A stretch of DNA of 64,000 nucleotides from a bacterium (GTDB lineage Bacteria; Zhuqueibacterota; Zhuqueibacteria; Residuimicrobiales; Krinioviventaceae): the NCBI GenBank assembly GCA_963674595.2, contig CAXXFV010000023.1, positions 288,001 through 352,000 on the forward strand. Reading direction: 5' to 3'. The notes beneath the pieces were generated by a model. It was not told where the DNA came from and did not search any database. It saw only the letters and a program-made list of their open reading frames with translations. Positions within the stretch are counted from its first letter, which is position 1. Every line of letters starts with the position of its first letter. Position numbers and translations under genes: made by a program. Below are positions 3,876-50,276 of this stretch, piece by piece.

Positions 3876-4850
3876 GTGGAAATAAACGACGTTTTTTTAC
3901 CGGTTAGAGACCATCTTGATGAATTTGAAAAGGCCTTTTCGGACCTGCTTCATTCCAATATACCCCTTGTTGATCAAATTGTTCGATATATTGCCACAAA
4001 AAGAGGAAAACGTCTTCGACCTTTACTCGTTTTGCTTTCTGCGCGGCTGCACGGACAAATAACCAAAAAGACGCTTCAGGCCGGAATGGTTGTTGAAATG
4101 CTGCATACGGCAACCCTGGTTCATGATGATGTTGTTGACGAATCCGAATTACGGCGGGGTTCACCAACCGTTAACAACATGTGGGACAATAAAATATCCA
4201 TTTTAATCGGTGATTTTCTTTTTTCAAAAACCCTTTCCAGTGTTCTGGATATGCGTGATTATGATGCTCTTTCTATTCTGGCGGAAACGGCAAAAGAAAT
4301 TACCGAAGGTGAGTTGCTGCAAATTGAACGCGGTAATGACATAAACATGGGTAAAGATATATATTTTGATCTGGTTTCCAAAAAAACAGCTTCTTTAATC
4401 AGCGCTTCCTGCGAACTTGGTGCGCTTTCTGTTAACGGAAGCAAAGAGGACCTGAAGCGGATGCATGATTTTGGAATGAATTTGGGAATTGCTTTTCAAA
4501 TACAGGATGACCTGCTGGACTATATCGGTGATTCTTCCGTGTTGGGCAAACCAACCGGAAACGATATTAGGGAAAATAAAGTCACTCTGCCGCTGATTCT
4601 TTCGCTGCCGTCTTCTGATGAGGAGGAACAAAATCGTATATTATCCATGTTTGAACAGGGAATTGAAAACGATAGCCAGGTCGCAGATGTTATTCGTTTT
4701 GTCGGTAACAACGGTGGTGTTGAAAAATCACGAGAAATTGCAAACCAATATATGGACAAAGCGATTGGAATATTGTCCGAATATCCGGATTCTGACAAAT
4801 TGAATGATTTGAAAAATCTTGTGCAATATTTAATACGTCGAGAAAAATAA
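3876..4850 (+). CDS. ispB: Polyprenyl (octaprenyl/heptaprenyl) diphosphate synthase
   Basis: GKRLRP, FARM LVHDDVVD..RRG, KTA, SARM FQIQDDLLD, GKP..ND. Confidence 0.85.
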   Translation: MEINDVFLPVRDHLDEFEKAFSDLLHSNIPLVDQIVRYIATKRGKRLRPLLVLLSARLHGQITKKTLQAGMVVEMLHTATLVHDDVVDESELRRGSPTVNNMWDNKISILIGDFLFSKTLSSVLDMRDYDALSILAETAKEITEGELLQIERGNDINMGKDIYFDLVSKKTASLISASCELGALSVNGSKEDLKRMHDFGMNLGIAFQIQDDLLDYIGDSSVLGKPTGNDIRENKVTLPLILSLPSSDEEEQNRILSMFEQGIENDSQVADVIRFVGNNGGVEKSREIANQYMDKAIGILSEYPDSDKLNDLKNLVQYLIRREK

Positions 4851-37708: not shown

Positions 37709-38242
37709 ATGCAATCTCAAAATTACTCCGGATACATTCATATCTATACCGGTAATGGTAAAGGTAAAACCACCGCTGCCTTGGGTTTGGCCCTGCGAGC
37801 TGCTGGTGCCGGCATGAGGATATATATTGGTCAATTCCTCAAGGGACAGTCCTATGCTGAACTGGAAGGCGTTAAAATGTTCGGCACACAACTGTGCATA
37901 GAACAATTTGGACAAACCTCTTTTTATAAATTGGGTAATGGTGATTTAAACGCAAAATCCTGTGCTCAAAAGGGTTTTCAACGTGTACAAAAAATCATTC
38001 AAAACAATGAATATGATATTGTCATTCTCGACGAAATCAATGTAGCCGTTTCTCTGGATTTAATCCGGCAGGACCAGGTGTTGGATTTGATGAATTTAAA
38101 ACCGGCCATGATGGAACTGATTATGACCGGACGAGGTGCCAGTCAGGCAATTATAGAGCAGGCTGATTTGGTCACTGAAATGAGGGATGTAAAACACTAT
38201 TATCATCAAGGTGTTATGGCGCGCAAAGGAATTGAACATTAA
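37709..38242 (+). CDS. cobO: Cob(I)alamin adenosyltransferase (CobO/BtuR)
   Basis: IHIYTGNGKGKTTAALG, QFLKG, ILDEI, TGR, ADLVTEM..KHYY..G..ARKGIE. Confidence 0.93.
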   Translation: MQSQNYSGYIHIYTGNGKGKTTAALGLALRAAGAGMRIYIGQFLKGQSYAELEGVKMFGTQLCIEQFGQTSFYKLGNGDLNAKSCAQKGFQRVQKIIQNNEYDIVILDEINVAVSLDLIRQDQVLDLMNLKPAMMELIMTGRGASQAIIEQADLVTEMRDVKHYYHQGVMARKGIEH

Positions 38243-38243
38243 A

Positions 38244-40448
38244 ATGAAAAATGTTTTAAATATATTTTTAATTTTTGTTCTGATCCCGTTTATGGTTACA
38301 AGGGGACAGTCTGTCGAAAAAGTTGTTGGCTATGTAATTGATGAAAGCAATGGAATGCCGCTAATCGGTGCCAATGTTGTTGTTCTTGGTACGTCTCAGG
38401 GTGCATCAACGGATATAAACGGTCGTTTCCAAATTTCTAATTTATATAATGGTGAATATTCCATTATTGCGCAATATGTCGGCTATGAATCAATTGTCAA
38501 GTCCGTACAAATCCAGATGGATCGACCGGTGAACATCATGTTCCGGTTAAAGCCGACAGTTGTAAAAGTTGATGATATAGAAATAGTAGCTGAAAGAGCA
38601 GAGCAAACATCTGATCGCATTATTGAAGTAATCCGCCATGAGGATATCCGCCGACTTGGTGCAAAAGATGTCGGTGATGTTTTAAAAACGCTGAATGCTG
38701 TGGAAATTGCAGAAACCGGGGGTTTGGGTAGTAAAAAAACTATTTCTATTCGCGGTAGCAATGCCAACCAGGTGCTGGTTTTACTCGATGATGTCCCCTT
38801 GAATGATCAGATGAGTGGTGAGGTGGATTTGTCTCAAATTCCTGTTGATATGATTGAAAGTATTAAAGTCCACAAGGGCGGCAGTTCTCCGGCATTCGGT
38901 AACGGGGCCATTGCCGGTGTTGTGCAAATTGAAACACGCAAAGTTTTTAAAAAATATATATCCCTTCAGATGCAAACAGGGTCTTTTCAATACCGACAGT
39001 TTAATCCGAGCTTTTCCGGTGTTTACAAGAATTTTGGCTATTATACATCGTTTGGTTATACGGAAAACAAGGGAGATTTTGAATTTTCCTATGAACACGG
39101 AAATGAAACAATTAACGCTGTTCAACAAAATGCAGATTTTATTTCCAGAAATTATTTTTCACGATTTTATTACGATTTAAAAGACAATCGGTTAACTGCC
39201 CATCTGCAATTGTTTAATTCTGAAAGGGGCCTGCCGGGACAAAAACGGCGCTGGTCCATTTGTGCCCGGTCTCATAACGAAAGAAACTTGTATGGTTTTG
39301 ACTTTAATCGAAATAAAAAAGTTTATGCTGTTACTATGAGTTATCGCATTACGGATGAGGAAACCGCTAACGTAAATTTACCTCCGGATACGTTGTCCGC
39401 TGCTTACAAGGGAAACAAGTATAACTATGTTTATAACGTTGAAAATAAACTTTTTATAGCCAAGGTGAAATATTTTCCAAAAAACTGGATTTATCTGACC
39501 ATAGGATTTGATAAAAGCCATTTATCTTATAATGATGAGGATTTTCTTGACTTTATTTCCCCAATTGGTCATGCAAAAGACAAATCCCATTCTTTTTCCA
39601 GCGACCACGAGATTAAGTTTAAACAACCAAAGTTGTTGATGCAGGGACAAATCCATTCCTATATACGTTATGATGAATTTCGTCTCGAAAGTAGAAAAAC
39701 AAGACGTTTTGAACATCAAACGAGTCCGGGTATCGGCGCCAATTTACAATTCGGAAATAAATACAAAGTTTTTTTAAGAGGCAATTTTTCCCGATCATTT
39801 CGGATTCCTACATTTGCAGATTTGTTTTATCAGGACGGGCGTGTAATCGGAAAACATGATTTGCTTCCGGAGAAGGGTAAAAACAAGGAATTTAATTGCG
39901 GGTTTGATATTCAATGGTTTGGAGATTGGACCAGTGAATATGCTGTCTTTCAAAATAAAATTGATGATTTGATCTATTGGACAAAGCAGGCCCATGATAC
40001 CTTTACGCCGGCCAACACCGACGCACAAATTGATGGTTATGAATACAATCTCTCTTACACAAGCCCAAACGAATGGGTTATAATAGATGCCGGTTATACG
40101 CATTTGGAACCACTCAACAAATCAAAGAATATTACACTTTACGACAAAATCATTACGTTTCGGCCGCAGGATACATTCAAGGGTAAAATAGAATGGCATA
40201 TAAAATCATCTTATTTGATTTTACAATATCGTCATATCGGCAAACGCTTTACAACTATAACCAATACTTATGCAGCGCCGGAATATGAGGTTTTTGATCT
40301 TACATCCGGTTTAACAAAAAATTTTCACCATTTCAGTTCAACATGCAGTTTTGCTGTTCTTAATGTTTTTGATGAAGAGTATGAGCTTGTTCAAAATATG
40401 TCCATTCCGGGGCGTCAATGGCGAGTCGGATTAAATTTTAAATTTTAA
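38244..40448 (+). CDS. TonB-dependent receptor, probable B12 importer (BtuB-like)
   Basis: Signal peptide, CarboxypepD-like domain, plug SIRGS.ANQVLVLLD, PTFADLFY, L.PE, terminal Phe; in riboswitch operon. Confidence 0.85.
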   Translation: MKNVLNIFLIFVLIPFMVTRGQSVEKVVGYVIDESNGMPLIGANVVVLGTSQGASTDINGRFQISNLYNGEYSIIAQYVGYESIVKSVQIQMDRPVNIMFRLKPTVVKVDDIEIVAERAEQTSDRIIEVIRHEDIRRLGAKDVGDVLKTLNAVEIAETGGLGSKKTISIRGSNANQVLVLLDDVPLNDQMSGEVDLSQIPVDMIESIKVHKGGSSPAFGNGAIAGVVQIETRKVFKKYISLQMQTGSFQYRQFNPSFSGVYKNFGYYTSFGYTENKGDFEFSYEHGNETINAVQQNADFISRNYFSRFYYDLKDNRLTAHLQLFNSERGLPGQKRRWSICARSHNERNLYGFDFNRNKKVYAVTMSYRITDEETANVNLPPDTLSAAYKGNKYNYVYNVENKLFIAKVKYFPKNWIYLTIGFDKSHLSYNDEDFLDFISPIGHAKDKSHSFSSDHEIKFKQPKLLMQGQIHSYIRYDEFRLESRKTRRFEHQTSPGIGANLQFGNKYKVFLRGNFSRSFRIPTFADLFYQDGRVIGKHDLLPEKGKNKEFNCGFDIQWFGDWTSEYAVFQNKIDDLIYWTKQAHDTFTPANTDAQIDGYEYNLSYTSPNEWVIIDAGYTHLEPLNKSKNITLYDKIITFRPQDTFKGKIEWHIKSSYLILQYRHIGKRFTTITNTYAAPEYEVFDLTSGLTKNFHHFSSTCSFAVLNVFDEEYELVQNMSIPGRQWRVGLNFKF

Positions 40449-40476: not shown

Positions 40477-42417
40477 ATGCGGAAAAAGTTTGTTACACTG
40501 TTTACCTTAATTGTTCTTGTTATTTCAAGCGCTTTTACTGTTTGGGCTGAAACTCCCCGAACTATGTATGTGATGAGCAGCGCTTCCCGTTCATTATCAA
40601 AAATGAACATGGAAACCGGCGGCGTTTTACAGGATGTTGTTTTGTTGGGTGAAACCAGCAACCAGGTTTTGGTCAATAATAATAAAATTTATGTTGTCAA
40701 TTCCGGTACGGATGACATTATGATCATTGATGCGGAAAACGACCAGGCTGTGCAGCAAACCATTGCTTTGGACATTGGCAGCAATCCCTGGGCTATGGAT
40801 TTTATCAGCAATGATATGGCTTATGTTAGCAATTTTTTAGATAATTCCGTATCTGTTATTGATTTTTCGACAGGACAGGCAACAAAAAAAATAACTGTCG
40901 GAACAGCACCAGAAGGTGTTTTTGTAATGGCAGATGCGGCTTTGGGAACCAAAGCGTTTATAACAAATACCGGTTATGCCGGTTGGAACCAACCCTACGC
41001 CGGTTCGTCTGTTTCTATTATTAATGTTGCAAACGATTCTGTAACACATACAATTGATATGCCGGTTAATCCTCAGGATATAGCAATTGACAGTTGGGGA
41101 CGTTTACATGTTATGTGTACCGGTGATTACGGCGAAAACACGGGAAAAATAGCCATCCTCAGTATGTATACCGGTGATAACTGGAATGAACCTGGTGTTG
41201 TTGCCACGGTAGATATTGGCGGTCAACCCGGAGATATTGTTGTAACCCCTGACGGAAAGGGATATTGTGTTGCCTGGGGTGATGGTACAAATGGATATTT
41301 GTACGTTTATGATGCCCTGGCCGATACAGTTATCCATGGTGCTGATGACCCAATTTTAATCGGACCTAATGTATCCAATCTTGTTTATGATAACAAAGAA
41401 AATTGTCTTTGGATCCCCTATATGGCGGAATGGGGAGGCGACAGCTATATCCAAAAATTTGATCTGGAAAGTGAATCTGTTGTATGGCAATCGCCATTGG
41501 TTTGTGCAGGCGCTCAGGCTCTTGCTATTCTGGAACCAATTTTGGACACAGATGCATGGGCAGACGGTGTTGTTTCATTTACAGCAGGAGCCGAGTGGAA
41601 CCATTTTGGTGAAAACTTTTTTCCACAAAATGTTCTCGGGCCACCGGACCCAAGCCCGAATATCGGACCATACTCTCCTTCTGCAAAGGCCCAAGAATTG
41701 TTGTCCTTGGGAAACGGTGGGGAAATCGTCCTTGAATTCTCAAATAATGTGATTGAAAACGGAGATGGTGCTGATTTTACTATATTTGAAAATCCGTTTA
41801 TTTCGTACTTTGATGGTTCTGTAAATTGTGAAACAGGTATTGTCTCTGTCAGTCAGGATGGTGAAAACTGGGTACAGTTCCCCTATGACGCTGAAACCTT
41901 GATCGGACTGGCTGGTGTTACACCAACCGGTGATACGCAGAATCCAACTGACCCGGCTGTTTCCGGCGGTGATCAGTTTGATTTGGCTGATGTTGGTTTG
42001 GCATGGGCACGATTCGTTAAAATTACAGACGCCGGTGATCTGGTCGTTGATAGTGGTGATTTTGATCTGGATGCGGTTGTGGCAATAAATTCTGCTAAAG
42101 AACCGACCTCAGTTGAAGATAATGAACATAATGTGCCGGAACAGTTTACCTTGGAGCAAAATTATCCGAATCCTTTTAATGGACAAACCTCAATCGAGTT
42201 TTTATTAAACAAAAACAATCATGTTTCTGTTGAAATTTATAACACAAACGGACAGCTTGTAAAAACGCTCATGAACAAATCCGTACAAGCCGGAGCTCAT
42301 CGCGTAGTATGGGATGGACGTGATAATCAAAACCTTGACGTTGTCAGCGGATTGTATCTCGCTGTTCTGAAAACGCCGGTTAAACAAAAGATGATTAAAA
42401 TGAGTTTTATTAAATAG
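40477..42417 (+). CDS. Secreted YncE/BtuG-like beta-propeller + cell-surface domain + FlgD-like CTD
   Basis: YVTN-like repeats (KIYVVNSG, AYVSNF, VSVID); LSLGNGGEIVLEF..DFTIFEN domain; LEQNYPNPFN CTD. Confidence 0.7.
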   Translation: MRKKFVTLFTLIVLVISSAFTVWAETPRTMYVMSSASRSLSKMNMETGGVLQDVVLLGETSNQVLVNNNKIYVVNSGTDDIMIIDAENDQAVQQTIALDIGSNPWAMDFISNDMAYVSNFLDNSVSVIDFSTGQATKKITVGTAPEGVFVMADAALGTKAFITNTGYAGWNQPYAGSSVSIINVANDSVTHTIDMPVNPQDIAIDSWGRLHVMCTGDYGENTGKIAILSMYTGDNWNEPGVVATVDIGGQPGDIVVTPDGKGYCVAWGDGTNGYLYVYDALADTVIHGADDPILIGPNVSNLVYDNKENCLWIPYMAEWGGDSYIQKFDLESESVVWQSPLVCAGAQALAILEPILDTDAWADGVVSFTAGAEWNHFGENFFPQNVLGPPDPSPNIGPYSPSAKAQELLSLGNGGEIVLEFSNNVIENGDGADFTIFENPFISYFDGSVNCETGIVSVSQDGENWVQFPYDAETLIGLAGVTPTGDTQNPTDPAVSGGDQFDLADVGLAWARFVKITDAGDLVVDSGDFDLDAVVAINSAKEPTSVEDNEHNVPEQFTLEQNYPNPFNGQTSIEFLLNKNNHVSVEIYNTNGQLVKTLMNKSVQAGAHRVVWDGRDNQNLDVVSGLYLAVLKTPVKQKMIKMSFIK

Positions 42418-42429
42418 TTTCTTCTCGTC

Positions 42430-42467
42430 AAAGGCAAGTTCGTTTTGGGTCGGCTTGCCTTTTTTTT
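42430..42467 (+). terminator. Rho-independent terminator of B12 operon
   Basis: AAGGCAAG...CTTGCCTT followed by a T run. Confidence 0.8.
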
Positions 42468-42506
42468 CCCCCCCTGTATTCGATTTCAGGTTTTAACTTT
42501 TAGTTG

Positions 42507-42546
42507 AAAAAAATCCCATCTGCCAAAACAGCAGATGGGATTTTTT
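42507..42546 (-). terminator. Rho-independent terminator of minus-strand TBDR (possibly bidirectional)
   Basis: AAAAAATCCCATCTGC-caaaaca-GCAGATGGGATTTTTT. Confidence 0.85.
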
Positions 42547-42553
42547 ATATGAA

Positions 42554-44896
42554 CTAGAATAAAGTTTGTAAACCAAAGTAAAGTGTCCTTGGGCGAATAG
42601 GACCATAGGTATAAGCCGGGTCCCGGTCCGGACCTTTATCCAGATCGTCCTGATAAGCATTTGTGATATTTCGAACACCAAAATTTAATTTTGTTTCCAT
42701 TCCATGGTTTATCGGTAATTTTATGGTTGCCCCAAGATCGATTTGGAAAAAGCTGTCGCTTTCAATCAGCAATAACTCTGGATCATCCTGGCCTTCTATA
42801 GCCACTTCGTGGGGTAGGTCTGCTTTGCCGATATAATTTCCTCCGATAAACACACTAAAACGGTCAACAGGATCAACCGTAAAACGAATATTTCCAGTTA
42901 AATCCGGTGTACGTAAGAAATTGGTTGTGCCAAAATCTTCATTCGGTGTGTCATACTCGCTCTTTTTATAAGTAAAACCGGCACGGGTCTCCAGTATGGG
43001 GACCGGACGAATTCCCAAATCAAGTTCAACGCCTTTAATTTGAGCGCCATCACTATTGATGCGTTCCCAGTATTCAATAACGCCTTGTTTGGAAACAAAT
43101 GTTTCTGTAAATCCATCATCAAGGGTTGTGTTGAAACCGGTCATTGTAATCATAACCGGAATATGATTGTATATGCCTTTAAATTCAAGTCCGGCAGAAT
43201 AGGAATAACTTTTTTCTTCTTTCAAGTCGTCGGAATTTCTGATGATTCGCTGGTCGCCTTCAATACCGCATAAATGTAAATCTTCATCATAGGTTTGTGG
43301 CGGTTTAAAACCTGTTGTAAAGGCAGCTCTTGCTGTAAATCCTTTACCGATATCGAATTTTCCGTTGACTCTCGGACTCCATATCCAGTTTTTTAACTCA
43401 GAATGTTTGTCGGCTCTTACACCAATAACAAACTCTATTTGCTCATGGCTTCCAAAATGAATATTGTCTTGGAGAAAGATTCCTGTGTTTTTATATGTTT
43501 CGTCAATGTAATACGTTGTTTCTGCTGCAGTTTTATCTTCGAGCTTGTCAAGTGTGTGCTGAAAACCCAGAGTCATCAGTTGACCGGCAAGTCGATAATT
43601 TAACTGGCCTCCGAAAAAATGAAGAGGATTGTTGGTCCTTCCATAAAAAGCCAAAGCATCAAGCTGGTCCTGGTCAGTGTCTCCCCCTAGACCACCAAAA
43701 TACGACTTGCGTTTTTCAATGGAAAAAGAGTAATAGAGTCTGTAATCAAGCAATGAGGAAGGACGATGGTTCCAGCGAATGCTCCCGCCAGACCGCCAGT
43801 GTTCAAGCCATTCAGCAATTTCTGCTTCATGTACAGGTAGATGAAAGTTGTTACCACCACGACGTTCTTCGTGAATACGGTGGAAGGAGGTTACAAATTC
43901 ACCTGTTTTAATAGGTTGATAATACCATTTGAACCCTATGGACTCATTTAACAGTTCACCCAATTCGCTATAGCCGTCTCCATTATGATCATAGGGATTT
44001 CGTTTGCGAAAAGAGCCGAACACATAAGCCCCGGATGTACCTTTTTCATTGACTGTTTCTGCTACAGCACCAACACGCTGGTCCGGTAAACCATTTGATG
44101 AATTGTTCAAATATTTAATTCGTACCTGGTTCATAATGGGTTTACGGGTGATCATATTAATAACGCCGGCAACCGCACCGGCACCGTATAATGAAGAACC
44201 ACCACCTTTAACGATTTCAATTTGGTCAACCATCTCTTCCGGAAAATGTTCCAGACCGTATACACTGGCAAGACTGCTGACAAGCGGATCACCATCAATA
44301 AGAATTTGTGAATACTTGCCGTCCATACCTAAAATACGTACCTGAGAAAAGTTACAGTTTGAACAATTGTTCTCAACACGAACACCCGTCTGAAATTCGA
44401 GTGCTTCAGCCAGGTTACTGGCTTGTTTTTGCTCTATAATATGCCTTGGAATAACTTCGGTGCGTACCGGCATATCTTCTACCAGGTGCGGGGTTGCTGT
44501 ACCGGTTACAACCAGGGCGCCCATTTCAAGGGCTGTCTGCTCCAGCTCAAAATCGACAACAAGTGATTCATTTGCTTTCAGGACAACAGTTTGATGGACC
44601 GTTTGATATCCTATCATTGAAGCTGTTAAATGAATTTTCCCGGATGGTACGGATGTAATAAGATATGCACCTTTGTCATTAGCTGCTGCACCATTTGTTG
44701 TATGATGGATTATAATATTTGCACCGGGTAATGGTTCTTTTGTGTCGGCGTCATATACCGTACCGCTGATTTTTCCTTTAAGATGATTTGCATTGTTACG
44801 CCCTTGATGTCTGCCATGCCTTTGTCCTTCTGCAAATGCAACGCTGCTTATTACAAGTGATAAAAGTAGTATAATATATAAAAATAGTTTTTTCAT
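42554..44896 (-). CDS. TonB-dependent receptor, probable transition-metal importer
   Basis: Signal peptide, His/Arg-rich N-terminus, plug NNCSNCNFSQVRILG, IEIVKGGGSSLYG, DEDLHLC, terminal Phe. Confidence 0.85.
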   Translation of the reverse strand: MKKLFLYIILLLSLVISSVAFAEGQRHGRHQGRNNANHLKGKISGTVYDADTKEPLPGANIIIHHTTNGAAANDKGAYLITSVPSGKIHLTASMIGYQTVHQTVVLKANESLVVDFELEQTALEMGALVVTGTATPHLVEDMPVRTEVIPRHIIEQKQASNLAEALEFQTGVRVENNCSNCNFSQVRILGMDGKYSQILIDGDPLVSSLASVYGLEHFPEEMVDQIEIVKGGGSSLYGAGAVAGVINMITRKPIMNQVRIKYLNNSSNGLPDQRVGAVAETVNEKGTSGAYVFGSFRKRNPYDHNGDGYSELGELLNESIGFKWYYQPIKTGEFVTSFHRIHEERRGGNNFHLPVHEAEIAEWLEHWRSGGSIRWNHRPSSLLDYRLYYSFSIEKRKSYFGGLGGDTDQDQLDALAFYGRTNNPLHFFGGQLNYRLAGQLMTLGFQHTLDKLEDKTAAETTYYIDETYKNTGIFLQDNIHFGSHEQIEFVIGVRADKHSELKNWIWSPRVNGKFDIGKGFTARAAFTTGFKPPQTYDEDLHLCGIEGDQRIIRNSDDLKEEKSYSYSAGLEFKGIYNHIPVMITMTGFNTTLDDGFTETFVSKQGVIEYWERINSDGAQIKGVELDLGIRPVPILETRAGFTYKKSEYDTPNEDFGTTNFLRTPDLTGNIRFTVDPVDRFSVFIGGNYIGKADLPHEVAIEGQDDPELLLIESDSFFQIDLGATIKLPINHGMETKLNFGVRNITNAYQDDLDKGPDRDPAYTYGPIRPRTLYFGLQTLF

Positions 44897-44906
44897 TATT
44901 TATGTT

Positions 44907-44963
44907 CCTCTGGTTTAAATCCTTTTCTTACGTTAATTAATACAAAAAGTGGCTCACCAGAGG
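44907..44963 (-). promoter_or_regulatory. Anti-SD hairpin linking RAPP codons to the TBDR ribosome-binding site
   Basis: On the mRNA, CCUCUGGU (44963-44956) is the exact complement of ACCAGAGG (44914-44907), which contains most of the SD GAGGA. Confidence 0.65.
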
Positions 44964-45308
44964 GGGCGCGCGGGTGTGGTACCTGAAGCATGGATTTATG
45001 CTCAAGTAGTAACATTTATACTTGAAAATTGAAAAGAATAAAATAATAAATAACAGGACTTTAATGCCAATTAAAAGATGAGACATTATATTGGTAATAA
45101 ATTCCCAATAATAAAGTTTGAATTCGGAATGCGTATGTGCTGGTGTTGAATTGTTTGCACCATCCTTTTGAAATGGATGAGCGTGAAAAACAAACTGGTT
45201 ATATATGTTTTTATGAAGATGTCCATTGACAGCATAATTTGACAACAGGGCCAATAACTGTATTAATAGAACAATTGAGAGAAATGATTTTATAAAAATT
45301 GATCTCAT
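44937..45308 (-). CDS. His-rich membrane leader protein with C-terminal RAPP (DUF2946-like putative arrest peptide)
   Basis: Hydrophobic segment - NGHLH..FHAHPF..HTH - TM - TRAPP; stop 40 nt before TBDR start. Confidence 0.75.
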   Translation of the reverse strand: MRSIFIKSFLSIVLLIQLLALLSNYAVNGHLHKNIYNQFVFHAHPFQKDGANNSTPAHTHSEFKLYYWEFITNIMSHLLIGIKVLLFIILFFSIFKYKCYYLSINPCFRYHTRAPPLVSHFLY

Positions 45309-45448
45309 AATTGTACGATTTTTATGATCAGTAAAAAGTTAGCTGGAATATCTATAGCAATAGACTAAAAATATAGAATATTGTTTTTAATGAACATACC
45401 AAGGCTATTTAAGCTGGTAAGAGCATTTATTTATTTTAAGTTGAAATG

Positions 45449-45826
45449 TTAAAAGGAAAAGAATAAAGGGGGACCGCGTAGGCTAAAACATAAAATATAA
45501 GAAGAAGGTGTTAAAGTACGTTGTTTAGCCGAGTATGAACGGTTGATTGTGAGAAAAATAATAAAAAGAATAAATAAAACAATAAAAGCCAAAAGATTTG
45601 TGATAAACTGATAAAAAAGAAACTGGGCTTGTGTATGCGTATGTTTGTTTTGGAAAGGTATTGTTGATCTGTCTTCATGTGAAGAAAACGGATGAGCGTG
45701 AAAAATAACAATACCATTTTCATTTTTGTGAAAATGGCCATTCATAACATTATTGTAACACAACAATAATGTCACGAAAATCATAAATAAAGCTGTTAAT
45801 TTTTTTATGTAATTAAATTGTACCAT
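45449..45826 (-). CDS. Paralogous His-rich membrane leader protein with C-terminal RGPP
   Basis: Hydrophobic segment - NGHFH..FHAHPF..HTH - TM - LRGPP; SD AGAAAGGA. Confidence 0.75.
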   Translation of the reverse strand: MVQFNYIKKLTALFMIFVTLLLCYNNVMNGHFHKNENGIVIFHAHPFSSHEDRSTIPFQNKHTHTQAQFLFYQFITNLLAFIVLFILFIIFLTINRSYSAKQRTLTPSSYILCFSLRGPPLFFSF

Positions 45827-45851
45827 ATTTCCTTTCTATAACGTGATTAGA

Positions 45852-45880
45852 AAGATAAAAATAAACAGAGTGATTGTCAA
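45852..45880 (-). promoter_or_regulatory. Putative sigma70 promoter of RGPP/RAPP-TBDR unit
   Basis: Minus strand TTGACA-17 nt-TATCTT. Confidence 0.6.
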
Positions 45881-46146
45881 TATTTATCTTTCAAGCTCTT
45901 TTGTTTATGTTTAGGGCATTCGTTAAAGTTCAAAAAGAATTTAATGATTTTGTGTTGTGTTTTTTTATGTCTGAATGGGCATTTATCATTTAATAATTAT
46001 AGACATAACATGACTAATTTGTAATATAGTATTTACAATTGCCGGTAGTTCATTAAAAATAGTGATTTAAATGTATATATCGTAATTTATTGTTTTAATT
46101 GTACTTTTCCTTTAAACATTTTTTTTGAAAAAAAATTGGAAAAGAC

Positions 46147-46189
46147 TTGACTTTATTGTCAATCATTTGTATAATTGTAATAACAATTA
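46147..46189 (+). promoter_or_regulatory. Sigma70 promoter with overlapping palindromic operator
   Basis: TTGACT-17 nt-TATAAT; TAATTGT-aata-ACAATTA at 46172-46189. Confidence 0.7.
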
Positions 46190-46206
46190 AAGCGAATGGA
46201 AAGAAT

Positions 46207-47313
46207 ATGAATATTGATAAAAACAGTCCTGTTCCTCAATATTATCAATTAGAGACATGGTTGGAAGAGCAAATTGATCAGGGTATTTTCAGGGAAGATG
46301 AAAAGATACCAACAGAGGAAGAGCTGGCACGTATGACTGGTCTTTCCCGTCCCACCATTAGGCATGCCATTCAGAATTTAGTAAATAAGGGATATTTGTC
46401 CAGAAGGCGCCGGTTAGGTACTTTTGTCAATAAGAAATTTTTAACGTCATCTACGCAAAACATATTAGGAATTCTGGTAAATTTTTATAAAAGTGGATAC
46501 GCCACGGAATTGATCCGGGGAGCTGGAGACGCCTCGGCAAAGGAGAATTATAGCCTTGTTTTATGTAATACCGATGATTCCTATGTTATGGCAGATATGC
46601 ATATAGATAGATTGTTAGAGCAAGGAATTCGGGGCGTTATTTTTGTTCCTACAGCCGCTTCAGATGAAAAGAATATATTACTTGTCCAGAAATTGCTAAG
46701 AAAAGGTGTCAAAGTTATAATAGCAGACCGTCACATTCCCGGTGTCGATATAGATAATGTCATTACGGACAATTTCTGGGGAGCCTATAATATAACCAAC
46801 TATTTAATTTCAAAGGGGCACCACAAGATTGCAATACCAATAACCACCCTGTTTAATACGGCCCGTGAGCGATTGGAAGGTTATAAACAAGCGTTAAAGG
46901 ATGCCAATATATCTATTGATCCTTCATTGATATTTTTAAATAACGAACGTTTTACGGATACATCATATTATGAATATGCGACACTTGTATTTAATACAAG
47001 GAACAAGTTTTCATCTATTTTTGCCAGCGATGACAAAATGGCCCATATTTTTTTCTCGGTTGCACGGCAAATGAATATCCGAATACCGGAGGATATTTCT
47101 CTTGTTGGGTATGATGATCTGCCCTGTTCATCGCCGGAATTTTTCGACTTGACCACCGTGCATCAACCTATTTATGAAATGGGTCAAAAGAGTACAGAGA
47201 TTTTATTAAGTCGTATAAATGGAAATAATGAAAAGACGCAGCAACTTACACTAAAATCATATTTAGCCGAAAGGCGTTCTGTTTTACCTCAAAAATATTA
47301 TAAACGTAAATAA
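46207..47313 (+). CDS. GntR wHTH + LacI-type sensor domain regulator (AraR-like)
   Basis: PQYYQL, IPTEEEL, SRPTIR.A, GTFV; then DNFWGAY, GHHKIA, IPEDISLVGYDD, LTTVHQP. Confidence 0.9.
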   Translation: MNIDKNSPVPQYYQLETWLEEQIDQGIFREDEKIPTEEELARMTGLSRPTIRHAIQNLVNKGYLSRRRRLGTFVNKKFLTSSTQNILGILVNFYKSGYATELIRGAGDASAKENYSLVLCNTDDSYVMADMHIDRLLEQGIRGVIFVPTAASDEKNILLVQKLLRKGVKVIIADRHIPGVDIDNVITDNFWGAYNITNYLISKGHHKIAIPITTLFNTARERLEGYKQALKDANISIDPSLIFLNNERFTDTSYYEYATLVFNTRNKFSSIFASDDKMAHIFFSVARQMNIRIPEDISLVGYDDLPCSSPEFFDLTTVHQPIYEMGQKSTEILLSRINGNNEKTQQLTLKSYLAERRSVLPQKYYKRK

Positions 47314-47597: not shown

Positions 47598-50276
47598 ATG
47601 CGAAAAATCAAGGTATTTTTATTATTTATTCTTTTTTTGGTATTGTTTTCAGAATTGCACGCAGGGGTTACCGGAAAAATTGCGGGTCGAATCGTAGACC
47701 GTGAAACAGGGGAGCCGATTCCCGGAACAAATATTGTTTTAGAGGGAACGTCGCTTGGTGCTTCTGCTGATTTGGAGGGATATTATTTTATAATCAATAT
47801 TCCGCCTGGCCGTTACAATGTAGTATTTCGGTGTATGGGTTATACCACACAAAAGTTTGAAGAGATTAGAGTGAATGTAGATGTTACCAATACGATAAAT
47901 GTCAAGCTTGAGCCTACGATTATAGATGGTCAGGAAGTGACCATAGTAGCAGAGAGGACACTTATTCAAAAGGATTTAACCTCTACGTCCGCCCGTGTTT
48001 CAAGTGATGACATCGAGTTGTTGCCATTGGAAAGTGTCGGAGAGGTTGTAAATCTTCAGGCTGGTGTTGTAGACGGCCATTTTAGGGGCGGACGACTCGG
48101 TGAAGTAACGTATTTGATAGATGGTGTTTCAGTAAACGATGCTTATGATGGCGCTCAAATGATTAACCTGGAGCCTAACGCAATTGCAGAAGTTGAGGTT
48201 ATAAGTGGAACGTTTAATGCGGAATATGGGCAGGCAATGTCCGGTGTCGTTAATATTGTTTCCAAAGAGCCGGAACAAAGAATAAACGGTCAGTTTTCTG
48301 CATATACAGGAGCCTATCTAAGTAATCGTAAGACACCATTTGCCACAAAAAGTGGAGATGCTACGAAAAGGGATGATTTTGGCCAGGAAGAGCTTTCCTA
48401 TTTTGATATTGCTGGTTTGGGTGATGTTTATGATGTTCAGGGGAATTTGACCGGGCCGCTTTATAAGGACAAGTTGTTCTTTTTTAGTTCAGTACGATAT
48501 AACAAAGATGACGGTTACTATTATGGGCGGAGGTTGTTTAGTCCCGGAGATTCATCATCTTTTATGGGAGATCGTGAAGATTGGGAGATTGAGGCGACCG
48601 GAGATGGTGAATTGGTTCCAATGAACTGGAAAAAGGCGCTGAGTTTTACCGGTAAGCTTATAGCCAAGCCTTTTTCAGGCCACAAGATTACGTATAATTT
48701 TATATATGATGATGATGAAAATCAGAATTTCACACACAAGTACAAATACAATCCGGATGGCCGTCCAACCAACTATGGTAAGAGTTTTTCACACATGTTT
48801 CACTATGATTATGTAATAAATCAAAATGGTTTTATAAATTTCAAATTTGCGAATTTTAAAAAGGATTATAAAACATACCTGTATGAAAATCCTTATGACC
48901 TGAGATATGTTCCGGATACCCGGTTTAGTATTGGTTCGGGACCAACTTTTTATATGGCGGGCACAAATATGAGTCATTCCTACCGTTCTTCCCTTAGCAC
49001 GGTGGCGAAAGCAGATTTGACCTATCAGGTAGACCGGTATAATCAGATTAAGGTGGGTGTACAGGCCCAGGCGCATGAAATAAACGTACACAGTTATTCG
49101 ATTAGGTTGGACCGTCAAACAAACTGGCTGCCACGACCGATAGAGAAAGAGAGTCCTAATTACGTACAATATACAAAAAAGCCTGTAGAATTTAGCGCCT
49201 ATATTCAGGATCGTATTGAATGGTCTTATTTCATTATGAATGTTGGCTTACGTTATGACAGATTTGAGCCGAGAAGTGTCATACCTACGGATTTAAATGA
49301 TCCTTCCAACAGTGAAAAGGTCGATGCCAAGGTAAAAAGCCAGTTTAGTCCCCGTTTTGGTATAGCTGTACCCATTACTGAGCATAGTGTGCTGCACCTT
49401 TCCTATGGTTTGTTTTTTCAGATGCCTTCTTTAAACGCTCTTTATTTAAATCCGGACTTTAGAATTCCTGTTGCTTCCTACTCACAGATCGGTAATAGTG
49501 ATCTGCAACCACAAAAAACGGCAACATACGAAATAGGCCTGCAGCACGAGGTTACCAAAGATGTCGCGCTGGAATTGACGACTTATTATAAGGACATTAG
49601 AAATCTTTTGGGAATGGAATCATATACTATGTATGAGACATTTACCCAATATGCCAGATATGTAAACAGGGATTATGGTCAGGTGTTTGGTTTTACTGTT
49701 TCATTGGAACAACGAAGTAGTGATTTTTTAACCACCTCTGTTGATTATACCTATATGCTGGCAGAAGGAAATGCTTCCGATCCCAAGGATGTGTATTTAA
49801 AAAGTGTAACAAGTCCTCCAACAGAAGTTACAAAGCAGCTTATTCCATTGGACTGGGACCGAACACACAGTTTAAACATAACAGCAACGGCCCATGACCG
49901 AGATCGCTGGAATTTGGGACTGATTGGAACATTTGCTTCGGGTGTTCCCTATACGGCTGAAAAGAATGACAATTATTTTGGTCCGGCAAATAGCGAGCGG
50001 AAACCATTTTTTGTTAGTTTTGATTTAAATTTTTCGGTATCGTTTAAACTTGCCAAGATGAAGGCAACGTTTTTCTCCAATATGTATAATATATTTGATA
50101 TAGAAAATGATATACAAATATATACGGATAGCGGTAATGCAAGTTATACAAGAAGCATGAGCACAAAAACAGATGATATGATAACCGGAATTAATACAAT
50201 CAGGGATTATTATTATCGTCAGGATTACCGAAGCGCTCCGAGAAAAGTTGTTTTAGGTATACAGGTTGAATTTTAA
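47598..50276 (+). CDS. TonB-dependent receptor (GTTGKIAG-type, likely glycan-related)
   Basis: AGVTGKIAGRIVD, HFRGGR, SGTFNAEYGQAMSGVVNI, SPRFG, terminal Phe. Confidence 0.88.
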   Translation: MRKIKVFLLFILFLVLFSELHAGVTGKIAGRIVDRETGEPIPGTNIVLEGTSLGASADLEGYYFIINIPPGRYNVVFRCMGYTTQKFEEIRVNVDVTNTINVKLEPTIIDGQEVTIVAERTLIQKDLTSTSARVSSDDIELLPLESVGEVVNLQAGVVDGHFRGGRLGEVTYLIDGVSVNDAYDGAQMINLEPNAIAEVEVISGTFNAEYGQAMSGVVNIVSKEPEQRINGQFSAYTGAYLSNRKTPFATKSGDATKRDDFGQEELSYFDIAGLGDVYDVQGNLTGPLYKDKLFFFSSVRYNKDDGYYYGRRLFSPGDSSSFMGDREDWEIEATGDGELVPMNWKKALSFTGKLIAKPFSGHKITYNFIYDDDENQNFTHKYKYNPDGRPTNYGKSFSHMFHYDYVINQNGFINFKFANFKKDYKTYLYENPYDLRYVPDTRFSIGSGPTFYMAGTNMSHSYRSSLSTVAKADLTYQVDRYNQIKVGVQAQAHEINVHSYSIRLDRQTNWLPRPIEKESPNYVQYTKKPVEFSAYIQDRIEWSYFIMNVGLRYDRFEPRSVIPTDLNDPSNSEKVDAKVKSQFSPRFGIAVPITEHSVLHLSYGLFFQMPSLNALYLNPDFRIPVASYSQIGNSDLQPQKTATYEIGLQHEVTKDVALELTTYYKDIRNLLGMESYTMYETFTQYARYVNRDYGQVFGFTVSLEQRSSDFLTTSVDYTYMLAEGNASDPKDVYLKSVTSPPTEVTKQLIPLDWDRTHSLNITATAHDRDRWNLGLIGTFASGVPYTAEKNDNYFGPANSERKPFFVSFDLNFSVSFKLAKMKATFFSNMYNIFDIENDIQIYTDSGNASYTRSMSTKTDDMITGINTIRDYYYRQDYRSAPRKVVLGIQVEF

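Follow-up and report, generated by a model that had tools for sequence, protein, structure and literature searches.

A candidate histidine-based, metal-sensing R[AG]PP arrest leader upstream of a TonB-dependent receptor gene in a Zhuqueibacterota genome

The locus described here raises the question of whether a small membrane protein encoded directly ahead of a TonB-dependent receptor gene could sense metal while it is still being made, by arresting its own ribosome. The window is a stretch of 64,000 nucleotides (positions 288,001-352,000 of the forward strand of contig CAXXFV010000023.1, assembly GCA_963674595.2), and all coordinates below refer to it. An original prediction, drawn from the letters of this DNA, had pointed to a 123-aa open reading frame (ORF) with two hydrophobic helices, a loop carrying six His residues and the motif RAPP, and translation confirmed such an ORF at 44937-45308 on the minus strand, with RAPP encoded at 44972-44961. 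The stop codon had been placed directly after RAPP and the leader had been taken to be a single one, and neither point held: seven codons (LVSHFLY) intervene before the TAA at 44939-44937, and a paralogue was found upstream at 45449-45826 on the minus strand, with a third copy elsewhere in the genome, at a ZnuA/ABC-3 importer locus. The order on the minus strand is leader 1, 140 nt, leader 2, 40 nt from its stop to the receptor ATG on the same strand, and receptor, an arrangement that we take to be one operon. In a six-frame translation of the whole window, leaders 1 and 2 were the only ORFs of 60-260 aa that ended in R[AG]PP. The features on which the argument depends are as follows.

45449-45826, minus strand: leader 1 (P0003), 125 aa, the RGPP leader
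44937-45308, minus strand: leader 2 (P0001), 123 aa, the RAPP leader and the ORF of the original prediction
42554-44896, minus strand: TonB-dependent receptor, 780 aa, CarbopepD_reg, Plug and beta-barrel domains
45467-45478, minus strand: RGPP codons of leader 1 (CGC GGT CCC CCT), predicted first arrest site
44961-44972, minus strand: RAPP codons of leader 2 (CGC GCG CCC CCT), predicted arrest site
45129-45221, minus strand: codons H30-H60 with the six-His cluster (H30, H32, H42, H44, H58, H60), predicted periplasmic loop
44907-44963, minus strand: predicted mRNA hairpin between the stall codons and the receptor's Shine-Dalgarno (SD) sequence, from RNAfold, genome-wide duplex scores and an ensemble model

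The answer that we favour, with a probability of roughly 0.6, is that the receptor is under the control of a metal-sensing R[AG]PP arrest leader; the less specific statement, that an arrest-peptide leader regulates downstream metal-import genes, is very probable. Each leader would be a small inner-membrane protein whose N-terminal helix directs it there; a loop of ~45 residues with three HxH motifs would be exported to the periplasm, helix 2 would span the membrane, and a variable cytoplasmic tail would end in R[AG]PP, at which the translating ribosome would be arrested with the first Pro codon in the P site. At arrest the last His would stand ~55 residues from the peptidyl-transferase centre, a distance close to that of one exit tunnel and one membrane crossing together, so that the His cluster would just have reached the periplasm. 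When no metal is present, the loop would stay unfolded and the arrest would hold; the ribosome stalled on leader 2 would cover CCUCUGGU and free the SD in ACCAGAGG, and the receptor would be translated. When metal, most likely Zn2+, binds to the nascent His cluster, folding of the loop and/or insertion of helix 2 would pull the chain and release the arrest; after release, termination would follow seven codons on, the hairpin would re-form and receptor synthesis would fall. Since an importer lies downstream, the sensible sign is that metal shuts off the receptor. A laboratory precedent reportedly exists in the zinc-finger domain ADR1a placed ahead of the SecM arrest peptide, where metal-dependent folding is said to release the arrest. 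Stalling, topology, metal identity, the sign of the response and the part played by leader 1 are all points that we infer.

The architecture of the two leaders is in line with this mechanism. Leader 2 starts with a hydrophobic N-terminal helix, followed by the His loop (H30-x-H32, H42-A-H44 and H58-T-H60), another hydrophobic helix covering roughly residues 70-95, a spacer of 17 residues and R113-A-P-P116. Leader 1 is likewise built of two hydrophobic helices and a loop, in which NGHFH, FHAHP and HTH occur, and it ends in SLRGPPLFFSF, the RGPP sitting 5 residues from the C-terminal end; it is 31% identical to leader 2 (E 2.4e-11), and Cys is absent from the loop of both. An AlphaFold 2 (AF2) model of leader 2, with the family alignment as input, reached a mean predicted local distance difference test score (pLDDT) of 81.8 and contained a helix at residues 2-28, a beta-hairpin at 29-33/39-43, a helix at 62-96 and a tail without secondary structure; the pLDDT was 82-95 for residues 1-50 and 61-100, 68 for 51-60 and 57-62 for the last 23. 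In this model H30/H32 and H42/H44 were placed on opposite strands of the predicted hairpin. With the basic residues R2/K7 ahead of helix 1 and the KYK that follows helix 2, an N-in/C-in topology that places the His loop outside would fit, the membrane helices having been judged from hydrophobicity and AF2. A profile search of the PDB sequences gave nothing (best E 0.8), and Foldseek, run on the PDB with the AF2 model as query, had 0 matches at E<=0.001.

To see which of these features are conserved, homologues were collected by an exhaustive phmmer search of 1.84 billion representatives (E<=1e-3), which yielded a family of 152 representative clusters or proteins, nearly all of 100-150 aa; a word-indexed homologue search with P0001 had no match. 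The motif was counted in 151 small proteins, namely the two leaders of the window and 149 phmmer matches, with P0004 excluded; this 1576-aa protein had the top phmmer score, matches P0001 residues 53-105 in 20 separate stretches and is probably a repetitive hydrophobic protein. RAPP was present in 89 members and RGPP in 42, together 131/151, while R[PS]PP was found in 9 and [HK][AS]PP in 8, so that 148/151 carry [RKH][AGSP]PP; three have no such motif, of which the two shortest, at 89 and 102 aa, are possibly truncated. The end of the motif lies 1-11 residues from the C-terminus in 135/140 members. In alignment A1, made of 100 members picked among those with R.PP, the invariant columns were H30, H32, H42, H44, H60, R113, P115 and P116, the invariance of the motif being partly due to this choice of members; H58 and P45 were conserved in at least 90%, with a mean column identity of just 26%. 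The ~20 residues ahead of the arrest motif were unconserved. The distance from the last His to the Arg was 51-57 residues in 132/134 members over an intervening sequence that is variable, and the first and second HxH were spaced by 12 residues in 124/134. The pattern makes it likely that the His cluster is a metal sensor, a part of the reading to which we give slightly more credit than to the whole.

The motif itself is avoided in this genome. RAPP and RGPP each occurred 0 times in the 1,409,216 residues of its 2722 long ORFs, where the control tetrapeptides AAPP, RAPA and RPAP occurred 5, 5 and 4 times. This absence agrees with the proteome-wide avoidance described by Fujiwara et al. (PMC12992588), in the available text of which RAPP and RGPP are reported to cause a robust arrest refractory to elongation factor P (EF-P) and to be excluded from proteomes. 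Small frames ending in R[AG]PP numbered 14 in the genome; three of them belong to the His family and three more are leader-like, giving six small membrane-type ORFs that lie ahead of transporter genes and end with R[AG]PP.

Two regulators with the same layout have been described: CruR, which is Bordetella pertussis Bp2923, a DUF2946 (PF11162) protein and the copper-responsive leader of the TonB-dependent transporter BfrG/CrtA (PMC9426467; PMC12914433), and CutF, the DUF2946 leader of the multicopper oxidase CutO in Rhodobacter capsulatus (10.1101/2025.02.05.636593). According to the available text of these sources, both are degraded after export. This bears on a rival explanation in which the His-rich proteins do their work mostly as mature proteins in the membrane, for example by chaperoning metal in the periplasm or by serving the receptor or the ABC (ATP-binding cassette) importer as accessory subunits, and R[AG]PP does no more than slow synthesis or tune stoichiometry and is no metal-responsive switch. 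Conservation of the loop and both helices is indeed protein-like, with AF2 confident there, tandem copies in two old clades (see below) fit two subunits, and the family is always linked to importers. Such a role would leave unexplained why a near-invariant motif, banned elsewhere in the proteome, stands at a fixed distance from the His residues amid a variable tail, and together with the fate of CruR and CutF this makes it an improbable account.

We then asked how an arrest on leader 2 could act on the receptor. That the RAPP codons pair with the receptor SD, and that an inner stem extends the hairpin, was borne out by RNAfold on 44880-44990 of the minus strand, whose minimum free energy was -20.7 kcal/mol. 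In this fold CCUCUGGU (44963-44956, from the second Pro codon) pairs over 8 bp with ACCAGAGG (44914-44907), and an inner CUUUUU/AAAAG stem forms at ~44949-44921. The SD, GAGG, lies inside the ACCAGAGG arm, 10 nt ahead of the receptor ATG; SD sequences were present at 45% of 2720 starts in the genome versus 5% at a control position. The CCUCUGGU/ACCAGAGG duplex amounts to -15.5 kcal/mol, a value reached at 1/829 adjacent gene junctions of the genome, and among mock 3'-end windows 0/2720 paired as well with the ribosome-binding site (RBS) of the receptor. By analogy with RAPP peptides, we presume that the ribosome on leader 2 is arrested with CCC (44966-44964) in the P site and CCT (44963-44961) in the A site. 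Counted from the first base of the presumed P-site codon, the CCUCUGGU arm then stands 3-10 nt to the 3' side, within a ribosome footprint of the generally accepted size. The ACCAGAGG arm lies ~37 nt past the leading edge, which would leave room for a second ribosome to load. The ensemble model gave the SD arm a probability of being unpaired of 0.01 when free and of 0.38-0.45 when 30 nt around the presumed P site were masked. That the SD hairpin is the output of the locus in the window is somewhat better than an even bet.

The pairing was further followed at homologous junctions, 44 of the 57 from the phylum being scored; the other 13 were excluded because the contig held no downstream gene, the start was not signal-peptide-like, the gap exceeded 270 nt or the locus ended. 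Pairing was defined as at least 3 expected bp between the stall footprint (30 nt) and positions -18..+4 of the next gene, and a footprint 45 nt upstream served as the mock. By this measure 18/44 phylum junctions were paired versus 2/44 in the mock (Wilcoxon p = 3e-4), and outside the phylum 3/10 versus 0/10, so that the expected pairing in homologues was found in 21/54 versus 2/54 combined. By class, it occurred at 12/24 junctions with receptors, 4/12 with importers and 1/2 with other genes. Cognate duplexes between footprint and RBS had a mean of -9.36 kcal/mol versus -8.13 kcal/mol for non-cognate ones, and 0/10,000 permutations reached the cognate mean. The first Pro codon was CCU in 28/57 leaders versus 19% in downstream genes, and in the 41 loci with a background it was observed 20 times versus 8.1 expected (simulated p = 5e-5); CCU as the first Pro codon makes an anti-SD-like CCUCC. 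The register of the pairing varied by locus, and in L010 a ACCAGAGG-type RBS pairs with the Arg-Ala-Pro codons.

What lies after the leaders bears on what they might sense. Among 57 non-identical leaders from the phylum, the next gene encoded a CarbopepD_reg-Plug-barrel receptor in 27 cases, a signal-peptide protein of ~440 aa in 14, a second leader in 6 and something else in 7, and the contig ended in 3. Outside the phylum (records titled Bacteroidota, Ignavibacteriae and others) the same receptor type came next in 11/11 loci, split into two ORFs in L086. The receptor of the window matched PF07715 (4.9e-21), PF00593 (1.9e-36) and CarbopepD_reg_2 (1.9e-23), and no substrate-specific NCBIfam model was over its cut-off for it. 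In both loci that were scanned with Pfam, L009 and L011, the ~440-aa protein was followed by genes for ZnuA (PF01297) and an ABC-3 permease. L009 (G000:C16:136400-144800) holds the third His-family member of this genome, a 125-aa leader at ORF 4011-4388 ending in FLRAPPYILS; behind it come, in this order, a 441-aa signal-peptide/coiled-coil protein that belongs to no known family, ZnuA and two ABC-3 genes, and the best NCBIfam matches of its binding protein and permease were AztC/AztB (zinc transporter), both below cut-off. Some receptors also start His-rich after the signal peptide, with 6-7 His in L019, L021, L023 and L025 and three in the window (EGQRHGRHQGRNNANH). The original prediction had left the metal open among Ni, Co, Zn and Cu; the ZnuA/ABC-3 linkage makes zinc the first guess, and we would put zinc as the sensed metal at even odds.

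The same survey bears on a further rival, in which the arrest reports membrane-insertion or secretion capacity (SecYEG/YidC), like SecM, MifM and VemP, and the His cluster serves some other purpose. Helix 2 ends 14-31 residues ahead of the Arg in most members (mode 22-26), which is a distance at which insertion of a helix can pull the chain, as force-profile work has indicated. Known RAPP peptides were moreover first found upstream of Sec/YidC genes, as stated in the available text of PMC12992588. No Sec/YidC component was identified downstream in the 57 + 11 loci, where receptors and ZnuA/ABC-3 importers stand instead, and the most conserved features are the six His and their spacing to the Arg; a secretion monitor is for these reasons the least probable of the rivals.

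Two leaders in series were found in 6 loci, and the first was always an RGPP leader. In 5/6 of these loci first copies were nearest to first copies and second to second, with mean alignment scores of 201 and 148 within the tandem-copy classes versus 94 between them; the two leaders of the window were nearest to each other. Separate clades of first and second copies suggest that the tandem pair is an old, retained design. A gate at two levels, with leader 1 acting on transcription and then leader 2 on translation, is speculation.

Several observations weigh against the preferred reading of a metal-sensing leader acting through the SD hairpin. The 111-nt segment as a whole had a weak z-score of -1.42, and 22/200 shuffles folded as well; 96 of the 2720 RBSs of the genome (3.5%) pair equally well with the RAPP codons, and since Pro-Pro codons are intrinsically anti-SD-like and the RAPP codons are G+C-rich, part of the complementarity is compositional. 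Among homologues, 23/44 junctions in the phylum and 7/10 outside it show no pairing, and at the six Bacteroidota-type loci, with gaps of 167-356 nt and no SD, no pairing was seen (0/6). Masking of the footprint changed the mean accessibility of the RBS window over the 44 junctions from 0.393 to 0.414 (p = 0.19 versus mock), and the permutation and codon tests given above ignore relatedness and shared base composition. Only 1/6 leader-to-leader junctions was paired, which leaves the role of leader 1 unexplained by the hairpin model. Since pairing is missing from most loci, the family must also use some other output. The AF2 model was built without metal and speaks to topology only. As to the metal, the ZnuA-type protein is below every NCBIfam cut-off and has no long His-rich loop, and Mn, Fe, Ni, Co or Cu are possible alternatives.

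The other output could be transcriptional, as in CruR: the stalled ribosome would block Rho or polarity and let RNA polymerase read on into the receptor gene, and the SD hairpin would play a minor additional part or arise only because G+C-rich RAPP codons face an SD. Besides the precedent of CruR (PMC9426467), this rival can call on the unpaired majority of junctions, which includes all six Bacteroidota-type loci, on the 5/6 tandem loci in which leader 1 is not paired with the RBS of leader 2, on the presence of Rho in this genome (708 bits, over cut-off), on long junctions (gaps 16-451 nt, with a median of ~165 nt before receptors among those of at least 60 nt) and on leader ORFs that are C-rich and G-poor (C 0.22, G 0.14-0.15). 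It sits less well with the window, where the gap is 40 nt and the hairpin is both strong and specific (1/829 junctions; unpaired probability of the SD 0.01). The intergenic regions before receptors moreover have no C-over-G skew (0.162 versus 0.162), and selection for SD pairing would produce just such a CCU bias at the first Pro codon. Intrinsic terminators were considered as a general output and set aside, since terminator-like hairpins were present in merely 5/54 junctions, a count that also speaks against transcriptional control, and none was found in either gap of the window. Taken with both sides, we regard a transcriptional output with an incidental hairpin as unlikely, if clearly less so than the other two rivals. 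The SD hairpin preferred here is a likely output in the window and in a sizeable minority of loci, and it is not the universal mechanism of the family.

The comparison with known systems shows where such a leader would stand. CruR is like the window leaders in being a small exported protein and the first gene of its operon, with a TonB-dependent transporter downstream and a C-terminal RAPP that lies shortly before the stop and keeps a conserved spacing to the metal motif; metal has been proposed to relieve its arrest and so to shut the importer, the same sign as that proposed for the His leaders. CruR differs in having CXXC, a signal peptide and a spacing of 45 (45 +/- 2 for DUF2946), as against six His, a second helix and a spacing of 51-57, and in its Rho-dependent termination across a 162-bp gap; it is found mostly in Proteobacteria. 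The fixed His-to-Arg spacing of the present family parallels the CXXC-to-RAPP spacing, which is conserved and needed in CruR (PMC9426467). CutF resembles the window locus in coupling a periplasmic metal site on a nascent exported chain across the membrane to a C-terminal Pro-rich stall, and in that the stall melts a stem-loop shielding the SD of the next gene. It differs by its CxxxC, its EF-P-sensitive PPP and its other family; in CutF copper induces stalling and thereby turns a detoxifying enzyme on, and for an importer the opposite sign is expected.

A third precedent is SecM-secA, in which an arrest near the C-terminus holds a hairpin open and exposes the next SD until pulling force releases it (10.1101/2025.02.05.636593); SecM differs from the window leaders in responding to secretion rather than metal, in a motif that ends in RAGP and in its occurrence in Enterobacteria. 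Upstream open reading frames (uORFs) with RAPP/RGPP were reported by Fujiwara et al. in 2025 to be enriched upstream of TonB-dependent receptors across Gram-negative phyla (PMC12992588). ApcA, ApdA, ApdP and the receptor-linked uORFs of that work share with the window leaders R[AG]PP near the C-terminus of a small secreted or membrane protein and a place upstream of the regulated gene, and the motif is depleted from proteomes in the ApcA/ApdA/ApdP class as in the present genome (PMC12992588). Almost all of the receptor-linked uORFs are said to have signal sequences, while a second membrane helix belongs to the build of the window leaders, and the available main text of PMC12992588 mentions no His-type family, no zinc (0 occurrences) and no tandem leaders. 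The same source describes SLIV_16130 and SLIV_18480 of Streptomyces lividans as experimentally arresting RAPP/RGPP peptides upstream of metal-related genes, with conserved Cys/His that are predicted to form metal sites, and they are proposed metal sensors. These differ in coming from Actinomycetota, in being copper-related, in having four membrane segments or Cys pairs and in having no link to an outer-membrane receptor, and they are set apart here by description and not by sequence.

The general class of RAPP/RGPP uORFs before TonB-dependent receptors is therefore already reported (PMC12992588), and what is probably new here is a His-based, probably zinc-sensing and tandem form. A six-His version free of CxxC was not known to have been characterised in this lineage, and in the full-text literature searched no description of a His-type, Zn-linked or tandem arrest leader was found, with the supplements of PMC12992588 as a place where such proteins may be listed. 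At the level that sequence analysis reaches, the earlier interpretation appears largely borne out. The metal-sensing arrest peptides so far, CruR and CutF, are both copper-responsive, Cys-based, DUF2946 and from Proteobacteria; the His family is of unrelated sequence and widespread (records titled KSB1, Bacteroidota and Ignavibacteria) and would follow the same logic with six His and a second helix. If this is true, metal sensing by nascent chains extends to another metal, probably zinc, and to the Fibrobacteres-Chlorobi-Bacteroidetes (FCB) group, where post-transcriptional control is little known, and there would be a natural system in which ligand-induced folding beyond the membrane releases ribosomal arrest. 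It would also give a function to common 'hypothetical' genes of 120 aa and a likely substrate class to their receptors, and the retention of two sensors in series would call for an explanation.

The relation of the family to DUF2946 was also examined. Neither P0001 nor P0003 had a match in Pfam at E<=0.1 or in NCBIfam, and with PF11162 (cut-off 23.7 bits) 0/100 family members matched at E<=1. The conserved columns of A1 include no Cys column, and leaders 1 and 2 contain no CXXC or CxxxC metal motif. Comparison of A1 (100 sequences) with A3 (DUF2946 proteins over the PF11162 cut-off) by hhalign gave a probability of 6.6% over 30 columns, a weak result from a DUF2946 profile of 4 sequences. PF11162 was over cut-off in 0/167 genomes of the phylum and the His family was present in 46/167, P0003 being the second-best match to the family profile in that search (E 4.0e-31). 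As judged by these profile comparisons, the His-leader family is not DUF2946. In the Protein Atlas the 30 nearest clusters were unnamed 'hypothetical' Bacteroidota proteins, and the nearest named clusters, DUF6769 (0.93) and DUF2946 (0.92), are no more than leads; a search for DUF6769 was negative in this genome and in 4 genomes with family members.

Members outside the phylum were sought by a degenerate DNA pattern for NGHxH-x9-HAHP, which gave 59 loci with 16 true members. Leaders identical to those in the loci of relatives recurred in records titled 'candidate division KSB1 bacterium', and further true members came from records titled Bacteroidota, Bacteroidales, Rikenellaceae, Ignavibacteriae and two others. 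In metagenome scans no relatives of P0001 or P0003 came up. Within the phylum, small two-helix ORFs with His and CPxC motifs were seen in L073 and L066. The ORF at 1489-1857 on the minus strand of L073 carries HTHSDCPIC, ends in PRAPPSLF and scores 18.9 bits to DUF2946, below cut-off, and a word-indexed homologue search with it gave no match; in L066 the gene after the leader has FHNH..DDCPAC. ORFs of this type may bridge the Cys-type and His-type leaders.

The three other leader-like ORFs of the genome that end in R[AG]PP lie outside the His family. In L134 (G000:C23:421500-424600, ~70 kb past the end of the window), ORF 247-564 is a two-helix ORF with the loop FHNHEPD..HQDCPAH that ends in HHSRAPPFQLMKIA, 38 nt ahead of a 788-aa CarbopepD_reg-Plug-barrel receptor (603-2969); Pfam gave just one chance-level match for it. 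In L133 (G000:C16:258500-262000), ORF 324-623 encodes 99 aa with an FHNHQPD..H..CP loop, a hydrophobic helix and the end KRGPPAYCDVL, and is followed by a 151-aa lipoprotein-like ORF and then a 738-aa TonB-dependent receptor. The L133 and L134 ORFs appear to form one second leader family. In L135 (G000:C28:1-6500), ORF 4-402 encodes 132 aa, is rich in His and Cys (HFHVHP..GCEFHH..THHHHEGHVCG) and ends in QRAPPVFC, 74 nt ahead of an operon of OEP, CusB/HlyD and an AcrB-family (resistance-nodulation-division, RND) efflux pump; the ORF is a candidate arrest leader for a metal exporter, and regulation of the opposite sign would then be expected.

A far-reaching version of the proposal would make the locus the first zinc-responsive or, more broadly, His-based arrest sensor, reading periplasmic metal co-translationally across the inner membrane, built as a two-stage cascade in which leader 1 (RGPP) gates transcription or mRNA survival into leader 2, and leader 2 (RAPP) gates receptor translation through the SD hairpin, with an AND-like sharp response. 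Together with the three further leaders of the genome (two before receptors, one before the RND efflux pump), arrest peptides, in place of classical metalloregulators, would then be a main layer at which KSB1 and related FCB bacteria maintain metal homeostasis. We put this forward as a doubtful extension that would hold in full only in a minority of outcomes.

Upstream of leader 1 one more feature was noted.

45850-45892, minus strand: 18-nt inverted repeat upstream of leader 1, overlapping a sigma-70-like promoter match

The arms of this repeat, GAAAGATAAA.. and ..TTTATCTTTC, are 83% complementary with 7 nt between them, and the promoter match, TTGACA-17-TATCTT, lies within it at 45880-45852; an SD-like AAGGA stands 5 nt ahead of the leader 1 ATG. 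A similar palindrome, AAGATAAA...TTTATCTT, is present upstream of another RAPP-leader/receptor pair of the same genome. The strict palindrome pattern has 2 matches in the genome, one of them ~380 nt upstream of the L134 leader, and the window repeat has a longer spacer. It is possible that the inverted repeat is the operator of a transcriptional regulator, perhaps shared with L134.

The locus was also compared between strains. Of contigs from four DNA runs that were compared with this stretch, one was identical, and the strain in a second sample had 3 differences in 1.6 kb, all within leader 1, and 0 in leader 2, the hairpin, the RBS and the first 500 nt of the receptor gene; three differences are too few to infer anything about constraint. 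One of them, A>C at 45480, changes Leu116 of leader 1 to Arg (SLRGPP to SRRGPP), and an RRGPP form is present in 4/5 other first leaders; those at 45506 and 45755 fall on third codon positions. An apparent joint 44900>45556 was set aside, since only short foreign contigs with 22-nt sides carry it.

An Rfam scan of 42000-46500 gave no match over the gathering score. Sub-threshold matches cluster at 42472-42703, just beyond the receptor stop (among them rliE, 34 bits versus a gathering score of 90), and this cluster is probably a terminator-like hairpin. The genes that flank the operon lie at 38211-40448, 40477-42417, 47598-50276 and 46147-47313, all on the plus strand: two further TonB-dependent receptors of the CarbopepD_reg type that have no leader, a beta-propeller protein bearing a type IX secretion system (T9SS) sorting domain and a divergently transcribed regulator of the GntR helix-turn-helix (HTH)/LacI type.

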